DNA of 64,000 nt from Alphaproteobacteria bacterium (GTDB lineage Bacteria; Pseudomonadota; Alphaproteobacteria; Rs-D84): assembly GCA_015062525.1 (NCBI GenBank), contig SUUM01000001.1, positions 44,796 to 108,795 of the forward strand, given 5' to 3'. Below, in pieces: positions 4,323 to 49,657 of this stretch. A program made the position numbers and the translations under genes. The notes below the pieces were generated by a model. That model was not told where the DNA came from. It was given only the letters and a program-made list of their open reading frames with translations, and made no database searches. Every line of letters begins with the position of its first letter. Position 1 is the first letter of the stretch.

Positions 4323-7300
4323 ATGAAGAAATTATTAAGCATTGTTTTTATCTTTATACCCGTATACATTACATCGGCATCGGGTGCCAATACCAAGAAT
4401 GTGACTGCGAAATTGCTCTTGGGGGTGCCAAAACACGAGGACTCGGGCTATAAATACAAACCCTTGCGTACACTAGACGTATCTATCCAGGACAGCGATT
4501 GTACGTTCGACAATTCCAACCTCCCCTTCCAATATACATACACGGACGCAACACACATATCAATTGGTGCTATTGACCTTAATAAATTGCAGGGCAACAT
4601 TATAAAAAAAGAAATATCGCTAATCTGCAAAGAAGAAGCACCCCAACTGAGATTACAGTTTAGCTTTACCTATCAAGGTGGTAATGTTGATACAGAAGAT
4701 CAAATCACAATTCAACAGTTTAGTCTGAACAGTAGAATTGATAAAAATTCGGCACTTTTTAACGGTACGGTACCAACCTCATATCAGGAAAAACAGGAAA
4801 TAATAACCAATGCAGCTAAAAATCTTTGCTCAGGTGGCAGCTATACACAAACCAAGAATTCATTGTGTTGTATAAATGGCTTTTTCGATACCAACGACCT
4901 AGAAGTCAAAGAAGCATATCATAGCTTAAAATATCATGGAATAATACCATCTATTTGCCCCACCGACACCGGAACAATGAACGTTTCTGGAACTGTTGTG
5001 GATGAAAAAACCAACGAACCTTTACCTTATGCTAATATCGCTATTCTAGACAACCCATCAAAAGGGACATCCACCGACGAGAACGGAAATTTTACATTAT
5101 CAGACGTCCCACTAGATACAAAACTGAAAATTTTATTTGTTGACTATAAAACCAAGGAAATCTTTCCAGGTCAAAATATAACAATCAAAATGACTCCTAC
5201 CTCAACAACACTTTCTGAATTAAAGGTTATCGAATGTAGACCCGACACGAAAAATGGCATTAAAGCAAAGGAACGCATTGACGGCGAATGTTATCCATCC
5301 GAATGTGTGAAACCACGTTGGAAATTATCTGGCACGGACAAAGAAGCCAAATGCGTTAAAAAAGAATGTAAATTTGAACACGGCACGGGCGAATGGGTGC
5401 AAGAAGACAACACATGGGAATGCACGTTAAAGGAATGCGACACCGCCAAGGGATGGAAAAAGAACGACACCGGCAACACATGTATTGAAATGTTGAAAGA
5501 ATGCCGACCAGCAGACAAAAAAAGATTAGAATCAGCGGGCGCAACAAAAACCGGTATAAAAAAGGGAACCGAAACCTGTATTGCCCAGGAATGTAAATGT
5601 GGCTATGACCTTTCAAACGACCAATGTGTGGTATGGGCGGCGGACAAACAATGCACCACGGACACAAAACCAAAATTACCCGGGAATGCAAAATCCGCCA
5701 TTATGAAATGCGATGGCGAAAAAGCATACTGTGAAATCACCAACTGCAACGACGGGTACAAGGTCAGCGAAGATAAAAAATCATGTATCAGCACACGTGG
5801 CGATGACTGCGACGCAACTGCGGTGGACCCAAATGCCACCGCCGGCACAAATAAAAAAGTCAGGGGCAAAATGACATGCGTAATTACCGACTGCGCACAT
5901 GGTTTTGCACCAAACAAAGATGGCACAAAATGCGTCGCCGGTGAATTGTCCGAATCTGATTCCCTGGCAAAAATCGATGAACTGCGCGACAATGCCACGG
6001 CTATGCGGAACAAAGAACAGTCCACCGCCAACAAATTATTGGGTACGGCGGGCATTGGCGCAACCGGTATCGGTGGCATGCAAATGGCATCCGCCATGGC
6101 CGAAGAAAATGCAGACGCAGATGCCGAACGTGCAATGCGTGCATACCTGGCAACGTTCCATTGTAATTATGGTGCGGGCAAAAATATTGCGGGTGGCGAA
6201 ACAAACGTTGAATTACCGGGTGGGAACGAACTGATTAATTTATATTCAGAATATGTCAACCTGGCCAATGATTTAAAGGCACGCAAAACGGCACTTGATA
6301 TGCGTCCCGGGATTGAATCCGAATCAATTCTGGACGCGGCAACATCCGGTTTGTACGATGACGTTGCGATTGGCAAAACAAGTGGCGCATACACATCCCT
6401 GGCGCGCGCGTTGATGGACCCGAACGGGGCGGATGCCGCCGCATGGGCCGCACAAAAGGAAGAAACCGCCGACAAAAAGAAAACAGGTATGATTACCGCG
6501 GGCATTGGTGCGGGGGGATCATTGGTCGGCAACCTGGCCATCAATTCCGGCAAAGACAAACAGAACAAAGTTGATGAAATCTTGAATAAGTATGACAAAA
6601 AGAAACAGTTGCTGGATGAACTGGAATCCAATATTGCGGCATTGCCACCACAAACGGCCCCATGTCCAAACGGCACAACGGGCACCGCACACCCCGATTG
6701 CACATGCAATGACACAAACAAAATCTATAATCCAAACGCTCATGAATGCGAATCATGTGTCGGCGGTCAAATCGTCAAAGATGGCAAATGCGAATGCCCA
6801 ACCGATAAACAATTATGGGACACCCAAACCAGTCAATGTATTGCAAAACCAACCACGTGCACACCAGAATGCACCCCAACCGAAGGCAGTAATCTGATTG
6901 TTCAAAAAAATTGTTCGTGCACATGCATTAACGGTTATACATATAAAGACGGTCAATGCACATGCGAAGGCGACAATAAAGAACCTGGTACGGACGGAAC
7001 ATGCCACACAATTGAAACAAAAACAATTACTAAACATATTTCAACCCAAACAACAACAACGGTTGAAAACGCATCGTTGCCGGCCGGTTCGCTGTTCAAT
7101 GTTGGATCATCCGAACTAGTAGACGATGCAAAAACCGCCCTGAACACATTTATCAACGGCTTATCCGAGGCAGGTTATACAAATTGCGAAATCACCGTTA
7201 ACGGATACACCGATCCGCTGGGGGGGACAAAAATAAACCAAAATCTGTCCCAGAATCGTGCAAATGCCGTTAAAACACATATCGAAGGTCTGCAAAACAA

Positions 7301-7550
7301 GGCAATCAAATACGTCACCGCCACGGGGCTCGGCGAAGAAAAATGTACATGCGGTGCTGGTAAAAGCGAAACCGACACCGACGGTCAAATTAATGGAACT
7401 CAAATTAATTATAATGACCGTGAATACAGCGAATGTTCCGGCAAAGACAACAATCATTCTTTGAGGGGCAACGCACGCTATGCCCCATGTCGTCGTGTTG
7501 AAATTACCGCGGATTGCAAACAAATAACAACGGTAACCCAACAACAATAA
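4323..7550 (+). CDS. Large secreted mosaic protein: carboxypeptidase-regulatory-like domain, Cys-rich repeats, glycine zippers, C-terminal OmpA-like peptidoglycan-binding domain
   Basis: VSGTVVDEKTNEPLPYANI...GTSTDENGNFTL (CarbopepD_reg-like); LFNVGSSEL...VNGYTDPLGGTKINQNLSQNRANAV...RRVEI (OmpA C-terminal domain). Confidence 0.8.
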   Translation: MKKLLSIVFIFIPVYITSASGANTKNVTAKLLLGVPKHEDSGYKYKPLRTLDVSIQDSDCTFDNSNLPFQYTYTDATHISIGAIDLNKLQGNIIKKEISLICKEEAPQLRLQFSFTYQGGNVDTEDQITIQQFSLNSRIDKNSALFNGTVPTSYQEKQEIITNAAKNLCSGGSYTQTKNSLCCINGFFDTNDLEVKEAYHSLKYHGIIPSICPTDTGTMNVSGTVVDEKTNEPLPYANIAILDNPSKGTSTDENGNFTLSDVPLDTKLKILFVDYKTKEIFPGQNITIKMTPTSTTLSELKVIECRPDTKNGIKAKERIDGECYPSECVKPRWKLSGTDKEAKCVKKECKFEHGTGEWVQEDNTWECTLKECDTAKGWKKNDTGNTCIEMLKECRPADKKRLESAGATKTGIKKGTETCIAQECKCGYDLSNDQCVVWAADKQCTTDTKPKLPGNAKSAIMKCDGEKAYCEITNCNDGYKVSEDKKSCISTRGDDCDATAVDPNATAGTNKKVRGKMTCVITDCAHGFAPNKDGTKCVAGELSESDSLAKIDELRDNATAMRNKEQSTANKLLGTAGIGATGIGGMQMASAMAEENADADAERAMRAYLATFHCNYGAGKNIAGGETNVELPGGNELINLYSEYVNLANDLKARKTALDMRPGIESESILDAATSGLYDDVAIGKTSGAYTSLARALMDPNGADAAAWAAQKEETADKKKTGMITAGIGAGGSLVGNLAINSGKDKQNKVDEILNKYDKKKQLLDELESNIAALPPQTAPCPNGTTGTAHPDCTCNDTNKIYNPNAHECESCVGGQIVKDGKCECPTDKQLWDTQTSQCIAKPTTCTPECTPTEGSNLIVQKNCSCTCINGYTYKDGQCTCEGDNKEPGTDGTCHTIETKTITKHISTQTTTTVENASLPAGSLFNVGSSELVDDAKTALNTFINGLSEAGYTNCEITVNGYTDPLGGTKINQNLSQNRANAVKTHIEGLQNKAIKYVTATGLGEEKCTCGAGKSETDTDGQINGTQINYNDREYSECSGKDNNHSLRGNARYAPCRRVEITADCKQITTVTQQQ

Positions 7551-7552
7551 CC

Positions 7553-7578
7553 CACCGCCCCCGTGGCGGTGTTTTTTT
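7553..7578 (+). terminator. Rho-independent terminator
   Basis: CACCGCC-CCCGT-GGCGGTG followed by T7, right after the stop codon. Confidence 0.8.
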
Positions 7579-7579
7579 A

Positions 7580-8255
7580 GATAAATAAAAGTTTAGTTAA
7601 GATATTAATTTTTAGAAATCAAGCACCATTACCTGCCCCCGTCGGGCCCCGAAAAATTCAGATGAATTTTTTGGGTGACTTTGTGGGGCGGGACAGTTTT
7701 ACTTGACCCGCCTTGCGGGGCTTTAGTAAAACTTGGGTGGGGGCTAATATGACAAAACATTCAACACAAATTATTCGCGCAAAACAATTACGCAAAAATA
7801 TGTCAGACGCAGAAAGCAAATTCTGGTATCGAATTAATCGCAATCAACTAGGTGTAAAATTTCGCCGTCAACAACCAATCGGCCCTTATATTGTTGATTT
7901 TGTCTGTCATTCTCTAAGACTTGCAATCGAACTTGATGGTGACCAACACTCGCAAAACATCGCATACGATAACACCAGAACAGAATACATAGAATCCCAG
8001 GGCTATAAACTAATCCGTATTCCTAATACATATTTGACCCGCACAGGAATAGATGAAGTTGTTCATACTTTGCACAGGTGCATACAAGACAATCTGGATG
8101 TGCATAATTATTTTGTGTCTCGATATAACTAACACCCCCCACCCCGGAATTCCAACGCCAATAAATTGTCGGGAATTCCGCCCGCCCCACACACGGGGGC
8201 AGGTAATGGTGCTTAATTTCTAAAAATTAATATCTCTGTTAAACTTTTATTTATC
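7580..8255 (+). mobile_element. Inverted-repeat-bounded cassette carrying a DUF559 endonuclease gene (putative autonomous copy)
   Basis: 63-bp imperfect terminal inverted repeats at 7580-7642 and 8193-8255 (5 mismatches); nested inner inverted repeats; two internally deleted copies elsewhere in the window. Confidence 0.75.
7749..8132 (+). CDS. DUF559 (Vsr-like, PD-(D/E)xK) endonuclease-domain protein
   Basis: RAKQLRKNMSDAESKFW...GVKFRRQQPIGPYIVDFVC...LAIELDGDQH...YDNTRTEYIESQGYKLIRI matches the typical DUF559 signature; ATG at 7749. Confidence 0.9.
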   Translation: MTKHSTQIIRAKQLRKNMSDAESKFWYRINRNQLGVKFRRQQPIGPYIVDFVCHSLRLAIELDGDQHSQNIAYDNTRTEYIESQGYKLIRIPNTYLTRTGIDEVVHTLHRCIQDNLDVHNYFVSRYN

Positions 8256-8305
8256 GCGGTAATCATGGATTCCGCCACTAACCACTTGCACTTACACTAA
8301 CCACT

Positions 8306-8334
8306 AAAAAATCCCCGCAGACGCGGGGATTTTG
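8306..8334 (-). terminator. Bidirectional terminator of the recurrent AAAATCCC(C)GC...GCGGG(G)ATTTT type
   Basis: AAAAAATCCCCGC-AGAC-GCGGGGATTTT. Similar hairpins near 17442, 39099, 49710, 58071, 61852 and 63851. Confidence 0.75.
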
Positions 8335-8342
8335 TTTTAATG

Positions 8343-9044
8343 TTATTCCCGCCAGATGACGGATGGGAACATAGAATTTATTTTATCGCGCAATTGGGCA
8401 TCTGAAAAAAATACATCGCGTTGGGGCGCGGTTGTTTTGTGGTCATCGTCTTCGAAATGTGGAATGTATTTTTGAATGGCAACATTTTTTACCCCGCGCG
8501 ACGACAATATGCCCACAATTTCCAACAAATCATCGGTTGAAATAAAACGCGGGTCGCAGGTTATACGAACCTCGAAATCTTTGCCCGTGGTTTGCCATAC
8601 ATCAAGACTGCGAATCATATTGTCATATGCAATATGTTGACCGGTTAAATCGGGATATTTTTCACGTGTTGCTTTGAAATCCAGCCCAATCCAATCAACC
8701 GTGTCTGCGGCACGCGCCAGGGTATCGGGATAAAAACCATTGGTATGCAGACCAATTTTAAATCCCAACGCGCGAACACGACGCATATATTCGATAACAA
8801 CGTCCCCCTGCATCAAAGCCTCGCCACCGGAAAACACAACAGCCTCCAGCCGACCAACACGTGATTTCAACCATTCAAAAACACGCGCCGGGTCATATTC
8901 GCCTTCGCCCGTGGATAATAAATGGGGATTGGAACAATACACGCACCGCAACGGACATCCGACCAGAAACAGCACACATGCCAATTTGCCCGGATAGTCA
9001 ATGGTGGTGAACGGAACCAATCCCCCAATTTGTATTTCACGCAT
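8343..9044 (-). CDS. nrdG: Anaerobic ribonucleotide reductase activating protein (radical SAM)
   Basis: IGGLVPFTTIDYPGKLACVLFLVGCPLRCVYCSNP (CxxxCxxC), FSGGE; lies downstream of nrdD. Confidence 0.92.
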   Translation of the reverse strand: MREIQIGGLVPFTTIDYPGKLACVLFLVGCPLRCVYCSNPHLLSTGEGEYDPARVFEWLKSRVGRLEAVVFSGGEALMQGDVVIEYMRRVRALGFKIGLHTNGFYPDTLARAADTVDWIGLDFKATREKYPDLTGQHIAYDNMIRSLDVWQTTGKDFEVRITCDPRFISTDDLLEIVGILSSRGVKNVAIQKYIPHFEDDDHKTTAPQRDVFFSDAQLRDKINSMFPSVIWRE

Positions 9045-14665: not shown

Positions 14666-15142
14666 GATAAATAAAAGTTTAGTTAAGATATTAATTTTTA
14701 GAAATTAAGCACCATTACCTGCCCCCGTCGGGCCCCGAAAAATTCAGATGAATTTTTTGGGTGACTTTGTGGGGCGGGACAGTTTTACTTGACCCGCCAT
14801 GCGGGGCTTTAGTAAAACTTGGGTGGGGGCAAATATGACAAAACATCGCATACGATAACACCAGAACAGAATACATAGAATCCCAGGGCTATAAACTAAT
14901 CCGTATTCCCAATACATATTTGACCCGCACAGGAATAGATGAAGTTGTTCATACTTTGCACAGGTGCATACAAGACAATCTGGATGTGCATAATTATTTT
15001 GTGTCTCGATATAACTAACACCCCCCACCCCGGAATTCCAACGCCAATAAATTGTCGGGAATTCCGCCCGCCCCACACACGGGGGGCAGGTAATGGTGTT
15101 TAATTTCTAAAAATTAATATCTCTGTTAAACTTTTATTTATC
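14666..15142 (+). mobile_element. Non-autonomous (200-bp internally deleted) copy of the DUF559 cassette
   Basis: Near-identical to 7580-8255 but lacks 7761-7960; both inverted-repeat arms intact. Confidence 0.85.
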
Positions 15143-15622: not shown

Positions 15623-15723
15623 TAAACTTTTATTTATCGCAGTAACGATACATTAATTGCTCTTTTTATCTCGGCTGTGCTGTGCACAGACGGATGCACT
15701 TACACTAACCACTAAAAAATCCC
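15623..15723 (+). repeat. 101-bp direct repeat, copy 2, including a solo element right end
   Basis: TTAACTAAACTTTTATTTATC (15618-15638) is the exact reverse complement of the first 21 nt of the left arm. Confidence 0.9.
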
Positions 15724-49180: not shown

Positions 49181-49657
49181 GATAAATAAAAGTTTAGCAA
49201 AAATATTAATTTTTAGAAATTAAACACCATTACCTGCCCCCGTCGGGCCCCGAAAAATTCAGATGAATTTTTTGGGTGACTTTGTGGGGCGGGACAGTTT
49301 TACTTGACCCGCCATGCGGGGCTTTAGTAAAACTTGGGTGGGGGCAAATATGACAAAACATCGCATACGATAACATCAGAACAGAATACATAGAATCCCA
49401 GGGCTATAAACTAATCCGTATTCCCAATACATATTTGACCCGCACAGGAATAGATGAAGTTGTTCATACTTTGCACAGGTGCATACAAGACAATCTGGAT
49501 GTGCATAATTATTTTGTGTCTCGATATAACTAACACCCCCCACCCCGGAATTCCAACGCCAATAAATTGTCGGGAATTCCGCCCGCCCCACACACGGGGG
49601 GCAGGTAATGGTGCTTAATTTCTAAAAATTAATATCTCTGTTAAACTTTTATTTAGC
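49181..49657 (+). mobile_element. Second non-autonomous (200-bp deleted) copy of the DUF559 cassette
   Basis: Same deletion junction and diagnostic SNPs as 14666-15142. Confidence 0.85.

Follow-up and report, generated by a model that had tools for sequence, protein, structure and literature searches.

A DUF559 nuclease gene between inverted structured arms: a candidate nuclease–repeat partnership in an alphaproteobacterial genome

The window, that is, the whole 64,000-nucleotide (nt) stretch of contig SUUM01000001.1 (assembly GCA_015062525.1, positions 44,796 to 108,795) analysed here, comes from an Alphaproteobacteria bacterium of the Rs-D84 lineage and holds at positions 7580-8255 a 676-bp unit in which the sole open reading frame (ORF) with family support, 7749-8132 on the forward strand, encodes a DUF559 protein of 127 amino acids (aa). 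The unit has two layers. Its core is the DUF559 gene placed exactly between two inverted G-rich arms, which have the architecture of the intrastrand triplex motif with extra hairpins in the loops, and its shell is an AT-rich terminal inverted repeat around this core, the last 16-22 nt of which are common to gene-less families resembling miniature inverted-repeat transposable elements (MITEs). Fourteen copies of the unit are present in the source assembly (991,873 bp in 15 contigs, 97.6% complete; coded G000), and arms of the same plan flank DUF559 genes in its genus and in distant phyla.

The 676-bp unit and its predicted nuclease

A repeat search placed the inverted arms at 7580-7642 and 8193-8255, 63 nt each, 92% complementary and 550 nt apart, in agreement with the 63-bp inverted repeats with five mismatches given in the preliminary description of this unit, which had been made from the letters and a list of translated ORFs. 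Four of the five mismatches fall in one 4-nt block (element positions 17-20, GTTA versus ACAG), with the remaining one at position 41. The earlier remark that two of the mismatches are G-U compatible carries no weight, since this block has alternative alleles among the copies and some copies have one allele on both arms. The nested pairings and three side hairpins of the same description were confirmed: CCTGCCCCC (7632-7640) pairs with GGGGGCAGG (8195-8203), GTGGGGCGGG (7683-7692) with CCCGCCCCAC (8181-8190) and GGGTGGGGG (7735-7743) with CCCCCCACCCC (8135-8145), and the side hairpins lie at 7644-7677, 7693-7734 and 8146-8179. Folded as single-stranded DNA, the arms gave z-scores of -4.9, -2.0 and -3.5, and a 20-nt piece of the arm has six matches in the window, at three sites, against none expected from shuffled sequences. 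The parts of the unit, and its two other copies in the window, are as follows.

7580-8255 (+): whole composite unit, 676 bp, comprising the outer AT-rich terminal inverted repeat, the G-rich structured arms and the DUF559 gene
7580-7595 (+): left outer 16-nt terminus, GATAAATAAAAGTTTA, common to other MITE-like families
7596-7631 (+): left AT-rich shell, part of the terminal repeat, with the variable block (element positions 17-22)
7632-7640 (+): arm block 1, CCTGCCCCC, the C-rich side of the first hairpin
7644-7677 (+): hairpin module inside loop 1, lacking from the right arm of the window copy and present on the right in three other copies
7683-7692 (+): arm block 2, GTGGGGCGGG, which pairs with block 1 and with 8181-8190
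7693-7734 (+): loop 2 hairpin, alpha type; its sequence differs among species and arms, and a hairpin is always formed
7735-7743 (+): arm block 3, GGGTGGGGG, a mirror repeat of block 2 that adjoins the gene
7749-8132 (+): gene for the predicted DUF559/Vsr-like PD-(D/E)xK endonuclease, 127 aa, assigned by Pfam, fold and conserved residues
8135-8145 (+): complement of block 3, right arm
8146-8179 (+): right-arm hairpin, beta type, with GGAATTCC stems; the copy on contig C7 has the beta type on both sides
8181-8190 (+): complement of block 2, right arm
8195-8203 (+): complement of block 1, right arm
8204-8239 (+): right AT-rich shell
8240-8255 (+): right outer 16-nt terminus, TAAACTTTTATTTATC
14666-15142 (+): short copy, 477 bp, with both arms intact and a gene lacking element positions 182-373; the junction is an 8-nt direct repeat
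49181-49657 (+): another short copy, its deletion junction identical to that of the copy at 14666-15142

The encoded protein matches Pfam DUF559 (PF04480) with E 4.5e-32 and 110.6 bits, the cut-off being 20.6, and the alignment spans positions 5-106 of the 109-position profile. No other ORF of the unit has family support, in line with the earlier view that this is its only credible gene. A profile search of the Protein Data Bank returned 3hrl (E 1e-30) and the catalytic domain of the homing endonuclease I-Bth0305I, 3r3p (E 2.7e-4), and an AlphaFold model of the protein (mean predicted local confidence, pLDDT, 88.1) had as its best Foldseek matches 3hrl, 3r3p, Vsr-like domains of PvuRts1I, and Vsr itself (1vsr). 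Residues D50, E61, D63 and H67 are invariant in 13 sequences from three clades, and the model predicts a PD-(D/E)xK nuclease fold of the Vsr/EDxHD type. The available part of a survey of PD-(D/E)xK enzymes likewise groups DUF559 with Vsr and the I-Bth0305I homing endonuclease (PMC3424549). Further matches were to homing-endonuclease families in PHROGs, to the YcjD family in NCBIfam, below the cut-off of that family, and, weakly, to a methyl-directed restriction enzyme in PADLOC (E 1e-4). The gene copies within the genome are only 2-4 differences apart, too few for an informative ratio of nonsynonymous to synonymous substitution rates (dN/dS); between species, dN/dS was 0.05-0.20 in seven of the ten ortholog pairs of the same arm type (A-type) with computable dS, which is near saturation, and the protein is therefore kept by purifying selection.

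The unit is bounded upstream by the terminator (7553-7571) of an OmpA-family gene and downstream by a bidirectional terminator (8308-8333), beyond which lies a convergent radical-SAM gene. The upstream gene (4323-7550) encodes a cysteine-rich protein of 1075 aa with a CarboxypepD_reg-like domain and a C-terminal OmpA domain, parts of which recur elsewhere in relatives.

Copies in the source genome and the outer shell

The 14 copies, counted by BLAST of the unit as the preliminary description had suggested, are all at different loci with different flanks. Four are full-length (95-100% identity), six are short, having lost element positions 182-373 and retained both arms, and four are partial, three being cut by contig ends and one truncated. 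An identical deletion junction is found in six of the seven copies that show one (five of the short copies, together with the partial one that opens contig C7), the sixth short copy having lost about 10 further bases there, and the same joint is present in contigs of two public sequencing runs. The simplest reading is a single deletion, after which the defective element was copied in trans; recurrent slippage at the 8-nt repeat is an alternative that we do not favour over it. The left-arm hairpin module is also found on the right arm in three copies, and one full copy has the right-arm hairpin type on both sides, so hairpin types and modules have been swapped between sides and the arms therefore exchange sequence. 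The 34-nt hairpin module (window 7644-7677) was also seen within the loop of an unrelated hairpin in another species (locus L024, genome G017) and looks like an independently inserting mini-module. In one full copy (G000:C9:108186-108862; loci L003 and L044) the stop codon is lost and the ORF reads 25 codons into the right arm, giving a protein of 152 aa; the arms are therefore open in that frame. A fifth, divergent DUF559 gene on contig C9 (6580-6930) has its own 45-nt structured inverted arms arranged on the same plan, and its flanks are not dispersed in the source genome.

The arms end in a 16-nt terminus, G[AC]TAAATAAAAGTTTA, which occurs at 57 exact sites in the genome and at none when reversed as a control; about six bases beyond it are also conserved (consensus TTACTKM). 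A profile of the termini found 88 sites, forming 33 inverted pairs of 120-677 bp plus 22 unpaired sites, one solo 16-nt terminus lying in the window at 15623-15638. The DUF559 units account for ten of the 33 pairs and are the longest of them, none exceeding 677 bp. The remaining 23 are gene-less and MITE-like, have at least four unrelated inner sequences and share the last 16-22 nt; no other ORF was found inside any terminus-bounded element. These gene-less units measure 120-282 bp, and their inner families include one that is a 131-nt palindrome with a hairpin at its centre and another of 197 nt, structured and GC-rich, the core ends of which match those of a DUF559 element type in relatives.

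All 14 copies are bounded by the outer 16-mer termini, and every A-type copy includes the shell. Across the genus the 16-mer is multi-copy (at least five sites) in 14 of 121 genomes, eight of which are without a DUF559 match (G015, G068, G073, G092, G107, G117, G123 and G133), and conversely four genomes (G004, G005, G071 and G124) have a DUF559 core with G-rich arms and only 0-1 copies of the 16-mer. Shell and core are therefore separable.

Just outside the termini lie repeated modules that include runs of 6-10-nt tandem repeats and terminator hairpins (for instance at L003, near G000:C9 108186, and at G000:C14:29057). One flank module holds an outward-facing promoter-like sequence, TTGAAT-17 nt-TATAAT, followed by a conserved structured leader. 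No Rfam match was obtained for the flank modules of the element copies. The only other long repeat in the genome is a 2.2-kb family that encodes paired glycine-rich proteins, present at G000:C1:24356-26523 and in about seven other places (L011) with 82-92% identity and two paralogues of about 330 aa; the one protein checked, the first of the pair, had no Pfam match. The copy on contig C1 lies between MITE-like units, and several others lie at contig ends.

Gene and arms in relatives, distant phyla and Escherichia coli

DUF559 is patchily distributed in the genus, PF04480 matches being found in 45 of the 120 other genomes with 1-4 copies each. These counts come from a search whose first-look filter can miss members, as it gave no match in the E. 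coli control although K-12 ycjD scores 167 bits with the same model, so that genomes recorded as without a match, here and in the 200-genome set below, may include false negatives. Where the flanks were compared across taxa, as the preliminary description had advised, inverted arms lay directly beside the DUF559 gene or domain in 27 of 30 evaluated occurrences of the genus (30 fetched loci, exclusive of L041 and L052), with z-scores of 5-39 against shuffled sequences. Towards the gene, each arm runs from a hairpin of a C-block and a G-block to a second hairpin of variable sequence and then to a further G-block. The block sequences differ by protein clade and the architecture is constant; the second hairpin, in loop 2, is kept across species and arms, with a sequence that differs even between the two arms of one element.

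Arms of the A-type consist of GGGGCGGG followed by GGGTGGGG, with a mirror match of 7/8, seen in relatives and, for the source genome, in the right arm of its C9 copy. Among the genomes with A-type arms 10 of 11 have DUF559, against the genus baseline of 45/120, and one relative (G004) has 29 A-type arm motifs with one DUF559 gene and a single copy of the 16-mer. The pattern used was too strict for the source genome itself, which is undercounted, only two of its own arms being scored since most have one more G.

In relatives, DUF559 units are also found in frame within genes for housekeeping functions, namely at two sites of queA (L038-L040, L058 and L061) and in queH (L033-L035, L037 and L041). 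Each of the queA sites is used by two DUF559 clades, and in one case an arm remnant of the other type is retained; queA of the source genome is uninterrupted at both. The fusion ORFs of queA and queH are 350-713 aa long, and one case is a short gene-less palindromic unit in frame. Both genes belong to the queuosine pathway, which may or may not be due to chance.

Several comparisons point to movement between genomes. Pieces of the element in G043 are 96-98% identical to the source copies, against 80% for the neighbouring nrdG region, and a full copy in G106 is 87% identical, again against 80% for nrdG. Contigs from public animal-gut and manure metagenomes contain the element, with 9 differences over 674 nt in one run, against 26 over 545 nt in the adjacent flank. 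In G123, the closest relative by nrdG (86%), the element is lacking downstream of the orthologous OmpA-family gene, where only a 10-nt end-like stretch and similar outer sequence are found, a comparison that concerns the upstream side alone because the two flanking genes of G123 are on different contigs. Among contigs from four public runs over positions 6900-8900, none joins both flanks as an empty site would; they stop where the element starts or ends, as contigs commonly do at a repeat. Two joints, 7601>8289 and 7595>8259, were considered as empty sites and rejected, since they run through the common 16-mer.

Beyond the genus, a profile built from 13 proteins identified 80 DUF559 loci in Proteobacteria, Chloroflexota, Planctomycetota, Nitrospirota, Melainabacteria and others, 74 of which had enough flank for scoring. 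An inverted-repeat score of at least 30 between the gene flanks was reached at 58 of these 74 loci, against 2 of 135 windows shifted by 650 nt, a control preferred over mismatched pairs, which were inflated by unrelated loci sharing the arm motif. Most of the distant arms are variants of one motif, in which a C-rich block and its G-rich complement, separated by a short loop, are followed after 2-4 nt by another G-rich block. Among 170 arms in which block 2 is not its own mirror, block 3 matched block 2 better as a mirror than as a direct copy in 81, worse in 22 and equally in 67.

This canonical arm motif is also dispersed. Five genomes with only 2-6 DUF559 matches each hold 4, 33, 60, 108 and 240 copies of it (none for the reversed control), and where the motif positions were listed two of the motifs lie on either side of the DUF559 gene, no more than about 35 nt from it. 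The gene-less inverted doublets of Phenylobacterium terrae end like the gene-bearing unit and have a spacer of 45-85 nt in the place of the gene. In a set of 200 genomes of the phylum, a strong DUF559 match was found in 21 of the 25 genomes with at least five motifs and in 24 of the 175 others (odds ratio 33; the Fisher p-value overstates this co-occurrence, because kin are not independent). To be set between such arms is the normal state of small DUF559 genes across bacteria, with the same arms scattered elsewhere without the gene.

The canonical arm is the published intrastrand triplex motif (BoxC/PIT/TM, TM_ECO). According to the available part of Holder et al. 2015 (PMC4666352), that motif occurs in more than 260 genomes and 23 times in E. 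coli K-12, where five inverted pairs are found; the E. coli motif forms a triplex as DNA in vitro, and the motif is linked to local genome instability. The same part of the article states that transposase or integrase remnants, or other mobility functions, were never found near the motifs, and a term search of its text found none of 'endonuclease', 'DUF' and 'Vsr'. Open-access full text yielded no published link between DUF559 or YcjD and these repeats, supplements being outside that search, among them the tables of genes flanking the E. coli motifs in PMC4666352, which may bear on the point.

The ycjD gene of E. coli K-12 codes for a DUF559 protein (E 1.4e-49). The 3' end of the gene is itself a degenerate copy of the motif, and a full motif lies about 170 nt downstream. 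Box C was reportedly first described next to envM/fabI, which neighbours ycjD. Between ycjD and the downstream motif (L149; K-12 positions 1351040-1351406) there is a duplicated fragment of the ycjD 3' end, which looks like what is left of another copy. Of 5426 complete E. coli genomes, 3378 carry ycjD.

The block architecture of the motif, a hairpin of C-block and G-block plus a third block mirroring the G-block, is found across the arm types. The loops of the window unit hold a hairpin each and measure 42 nt (left loop 1), 42 nt (left loop 2) and 35 nt (right loop 2), beyond the 1-6 nt of the published search rule (PMC4666352, available part), and the window arm is therefore a derived form and not a textbook triplex motif.

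A proposed nuclease–repeat partnership and its alternatives

The DUF559 gene sits in the arms and the arms scatter without the gene, and for this reason we liken the pair to REP-associated tyrosine transposases (RAYTs, REP being repetitive extragenic palindromic) and their REP doublets (REPINs). The interpretation we prefer, to which we give a probability of about 0.55, is that the unit is a two-layer selfish element built on a partnership of this kind between the DUF559 nuclease and its repeats, with the nuclease probably acting on the arms. Of the selfish element mobilised by a nuclease that the preliminary description had put forward, a repeated and apparently selfish unit around a PD-(D/E)xK gene stands, and the nuclease as mover keeps the rank of a suggestion. 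The analogy to RAYT/REPIN made there fits well, since structured inverted arms flank DUF559 across the genus and across phyla and are also dispersed without it. Its treatment of the 63-nt arms as ends specific to DUF559 had to be given up, as their outermost part is common to gene-less families and is present in the eight relatives with no DUF559 match.

We postulate that the nuclease would recognise its own arms, whether as duplex or in a form folded on single-stranded or supercoiled DNA, and would nick or cut at or between them, after which host break repair or template switching would copy the element. The element could in this way enter gene-less arm pairs by a homing-like gene conversion, or take up new sites; the chemistry would be hydrolytic, with no covalent transposase intermediate, and defective copies such as the short form could be copied in trans. 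Breakage at the arms is suggested because the enzyme family includes a proven homing endonuclease, and because the gene fills the spacer of an arm doublet, as would a homing gene that splits its own target and has homologous arms on both sides for repair; the copying would fall to host repair since a hydrolase cannot join strands. The conserved mirror symmetry of the arms suggests that a folded form of the DNA is read, arising on single-stranded or supercoiled DNA.

A number of observations weigh against this interpretation. A hydrolytic nuclease by itself cannot transfer strands, and no flanking direct repeat of at least 3 nt recurs in more than 3 of 27 element pairs, which upholds the earlier report that a target-site duplication is not visible and leaves the insertion chemistry undefined. 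No promoter-like site was found inside the unit by a promoter scan. On the side of linkage, 16 of the 74 distant loci score below 30, 4 of the 25 motif-rich genomes are without DUF559, 15 of 158 motif-free genomes have it (the pattern covering the canonical arm only), and the single ycjD of K-12 has a full motif on one side only, some 170 nt away. A Caulobacter DUF559 protein, VsrA, has been described as very-short-patch-repair-like and tied to a cytosine methyltransferase (PMC12907096, available part). In addition, because the 16-mer termini are also multi-copy in eight genomes of the genus with no DUF559 match, the 14-copy burst may have been driven by whatever moves the outer shell, and it may owe as much to this shell as to the core.

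Carried further, the last point would make the DUF559 core a cargo or homing-type parasite of a MITE, its 14 copies having been made by another enzyme that acts on the shared outer termini and whose gene may lie elsewhere, in sequence lacking from the assembly or on a visiting element. We consider this unlikely, while taking it seriously. In its favour, the same 16-22 nt bound 23 other inverted pairs, whose inner sequences fall into four or more unrelated families; 14 of the 121 genomes of the genus have the 16-mer in multiple copies; and every A-type copy in the source genome includes the shell. Moreover, in 11 of 27 pairs each 16-mer is followed, 4 nt further out, by a TA dinucleotide, the pattern that a transposon targeting TA would produce; since TA is palindromic, this equally reads as an extension of the inverted repeat. 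However, no domain of the four families searched, DDE_Tnp_1 (PF01609), rve (PF00665), DDE_3 (PF13358) and Y1_Tnp (PF01797), was found in the 97.6%-complete source genome, which accords with the earlier statement that no DDE or HUH gene is visible, and neither of the two searched in five 16-mer-rich relatives, DDE_3 and DDE_Tnp_1, was found there, so that no conventional transposase with the same termini has come to light within these searches. The longest terminus pair is only 677 bp, A-type arms reach 29 motifs in G004 with a single 16-mer, and the linkage of gene and arms across phyla would be left unexplained.

A role in the host is improbable. DUF559 would then be a cellular nuclease of repair or restriction type, for example Vsr-like and connected with cytosine methylation, its arms would be terminators, insulators or regulatory structures, and the copies would have arisen by ordinary recombination; the Vsr-type fold and motifs, the weak PADLOC match, the proposed part of the Caulobacter protein in very-short-patch repair and the position of the unit between two terminators are all in line with it. 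Such a role does not readily accommodate four near-identical intact copies and at least six defective ones in a 1-Mb genome, the patchy occurrence in the genus and in E. coli (3378/5426), the in-frame insertions within queA and queH, the 96-98% cross-species identity where nrdG has 80%, or arms dispersed in up to 240 gene-less copies. We give still less credence, and very little altogether, to a function of the arms in the transcript, where they would stabilise or regulate mRNA like REP elements or serve as protein-bound structured RNA, with their dispersal secondary. The arms do fold strongly, their hairpins are kept while the sequence varies, and a contig from an RNA library spans 7691-8254 (DNA carry-over being possible), but no Rfam family matches the arms, sub-threshold matches to miRNA and leader families being taken as chance, and their conserved feature is a mirror repeat and not Watson-Crick pairing, which points to DNA structure. 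The published motif triplex, moreover, was formed as DNA in vitro (PMC4666352, available part), and arms symmetric about the gene would be G-rich in the sense strand for only one arm per transcript.

More broadly, and tentatively, since we put it somewhat short of an even chance, DUF559 proteins, including E. coli YcjD and the protein of the solved structure 3hrl, might be the missing partner nucleases of the pan-bacterial BoxC/PIT/triplex repeats, reading folded hairpin-plus-mirror-block DNA and driving by nicking the copying, decay and instability of these repeats. Held with the same reserve, such a partnership would run parallel to RAYT-REPIN with hydrolytic chemistry and a non-B DNA target, and would be able to enter housekeeping genes in frame. 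A pairing of nuclease gene and repeat across distant bacteria may thus explain the spread of a long-known repeat family. DUF559 is a large family with a solved structure and most of its members have no assigned role; if the proposal is true, DUF559 and the triplex-motif repeats, two long-standing orphans, explain each other, and a second bacterial nuclease–repeat partnership stands beside RAYT/REPIN. If the nuclease acts on the repeats, their origin, their spread and the instability near them acquire a concrete and testable cause, and there would be a natural enzyme to study whose target is a folded DNA shape prone to triplex formation. The idea is directly testable in E. coli K-12, which has one ycjD and 23 motifs by the count in the available part of PMC4666352.

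Comparison with known systems

RAYT/REPIN systems combine REP-associated tyrosine transposases, which are HUH Y1 enzymes, with REP doublets. As we understand them, they share with the DUF559 system a small nuclease-type gene flanked by short structured repeats that also occur as gene-less inverted doublets, few genes with many repeats, and co-occurrence of gene and repeat at the level of genomes. They differ in the enzyme, which here is a predicted Vsr-like PD-(D/E)xK hydrolase, no HUH Y1 domain (PF01797) having been found in the genome; in the repeat, which here is a hairpin plus a mirror G-block where REP is a simple hairpin; and in the gene, which here is itself multi-copy in the genome and moves between species. 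With the triplex motif, the canonical arm on the DUF559 side shares, in many phyla, the order of C-block, G-block, 2-4 nt loop and mirror G-block and the occurrence in inverted pairs, whereas the loops of the window arm hold hairpins of 34-42 nt in place of the 1-6 nt allowed by the rule in the available part of PMC4666352.

The EDxHD homing endonuclease I-Bth0305I (3r3p; PMC3384342, available part) resembles the window protein in the sequence of its catalytic domain and in predicted fold, in a selfish, patchy distribution and in the PHROG matches, with homing suggested only indirectly, by a DUF559 gene that fills the spacer between paired arms and by queA sites that two DUF559 clades have in common. 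Unlike that enzyme, the 127-aa DUF559 protein has no extra DNA-binding domain, and its gene lies outside any intron or intein, between palindromic repeats and in several copies in one genome. Vsr and the Caulobacter VsrA (PMC12907096, available part) belong to the same fold family and have the same catalytic residues, but no methyltransferase is seen next to the window gene, and the context is multi-copy, repeat-flanked and mobile instead of that of a housekeeping repair gene.

MITEs are similar in size (120-677 bp here), terminal inverted repeats, copy number, families that share termini and derivatives with internal deletions; the present elements differ in having no target-site duplication of at least 3 nt and no cognate transposase among the families searched, and in that their longest member encodes a nuclease and not a transposase. 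Rickettsia palindromic elements resemble the palindromic units that relatives carry, with or without DUF559, in frame within queA and queH. The likeness lies in this in-frame habit only; the window copies are intergenic, and the Rickettsia elements are not known to have an associated protein. The element is best filed as akin to the kind made of a nuclease plus dispersed repeats, as in RAYT/REPIN or in a free-standing homing gene, while belonging to neither family.

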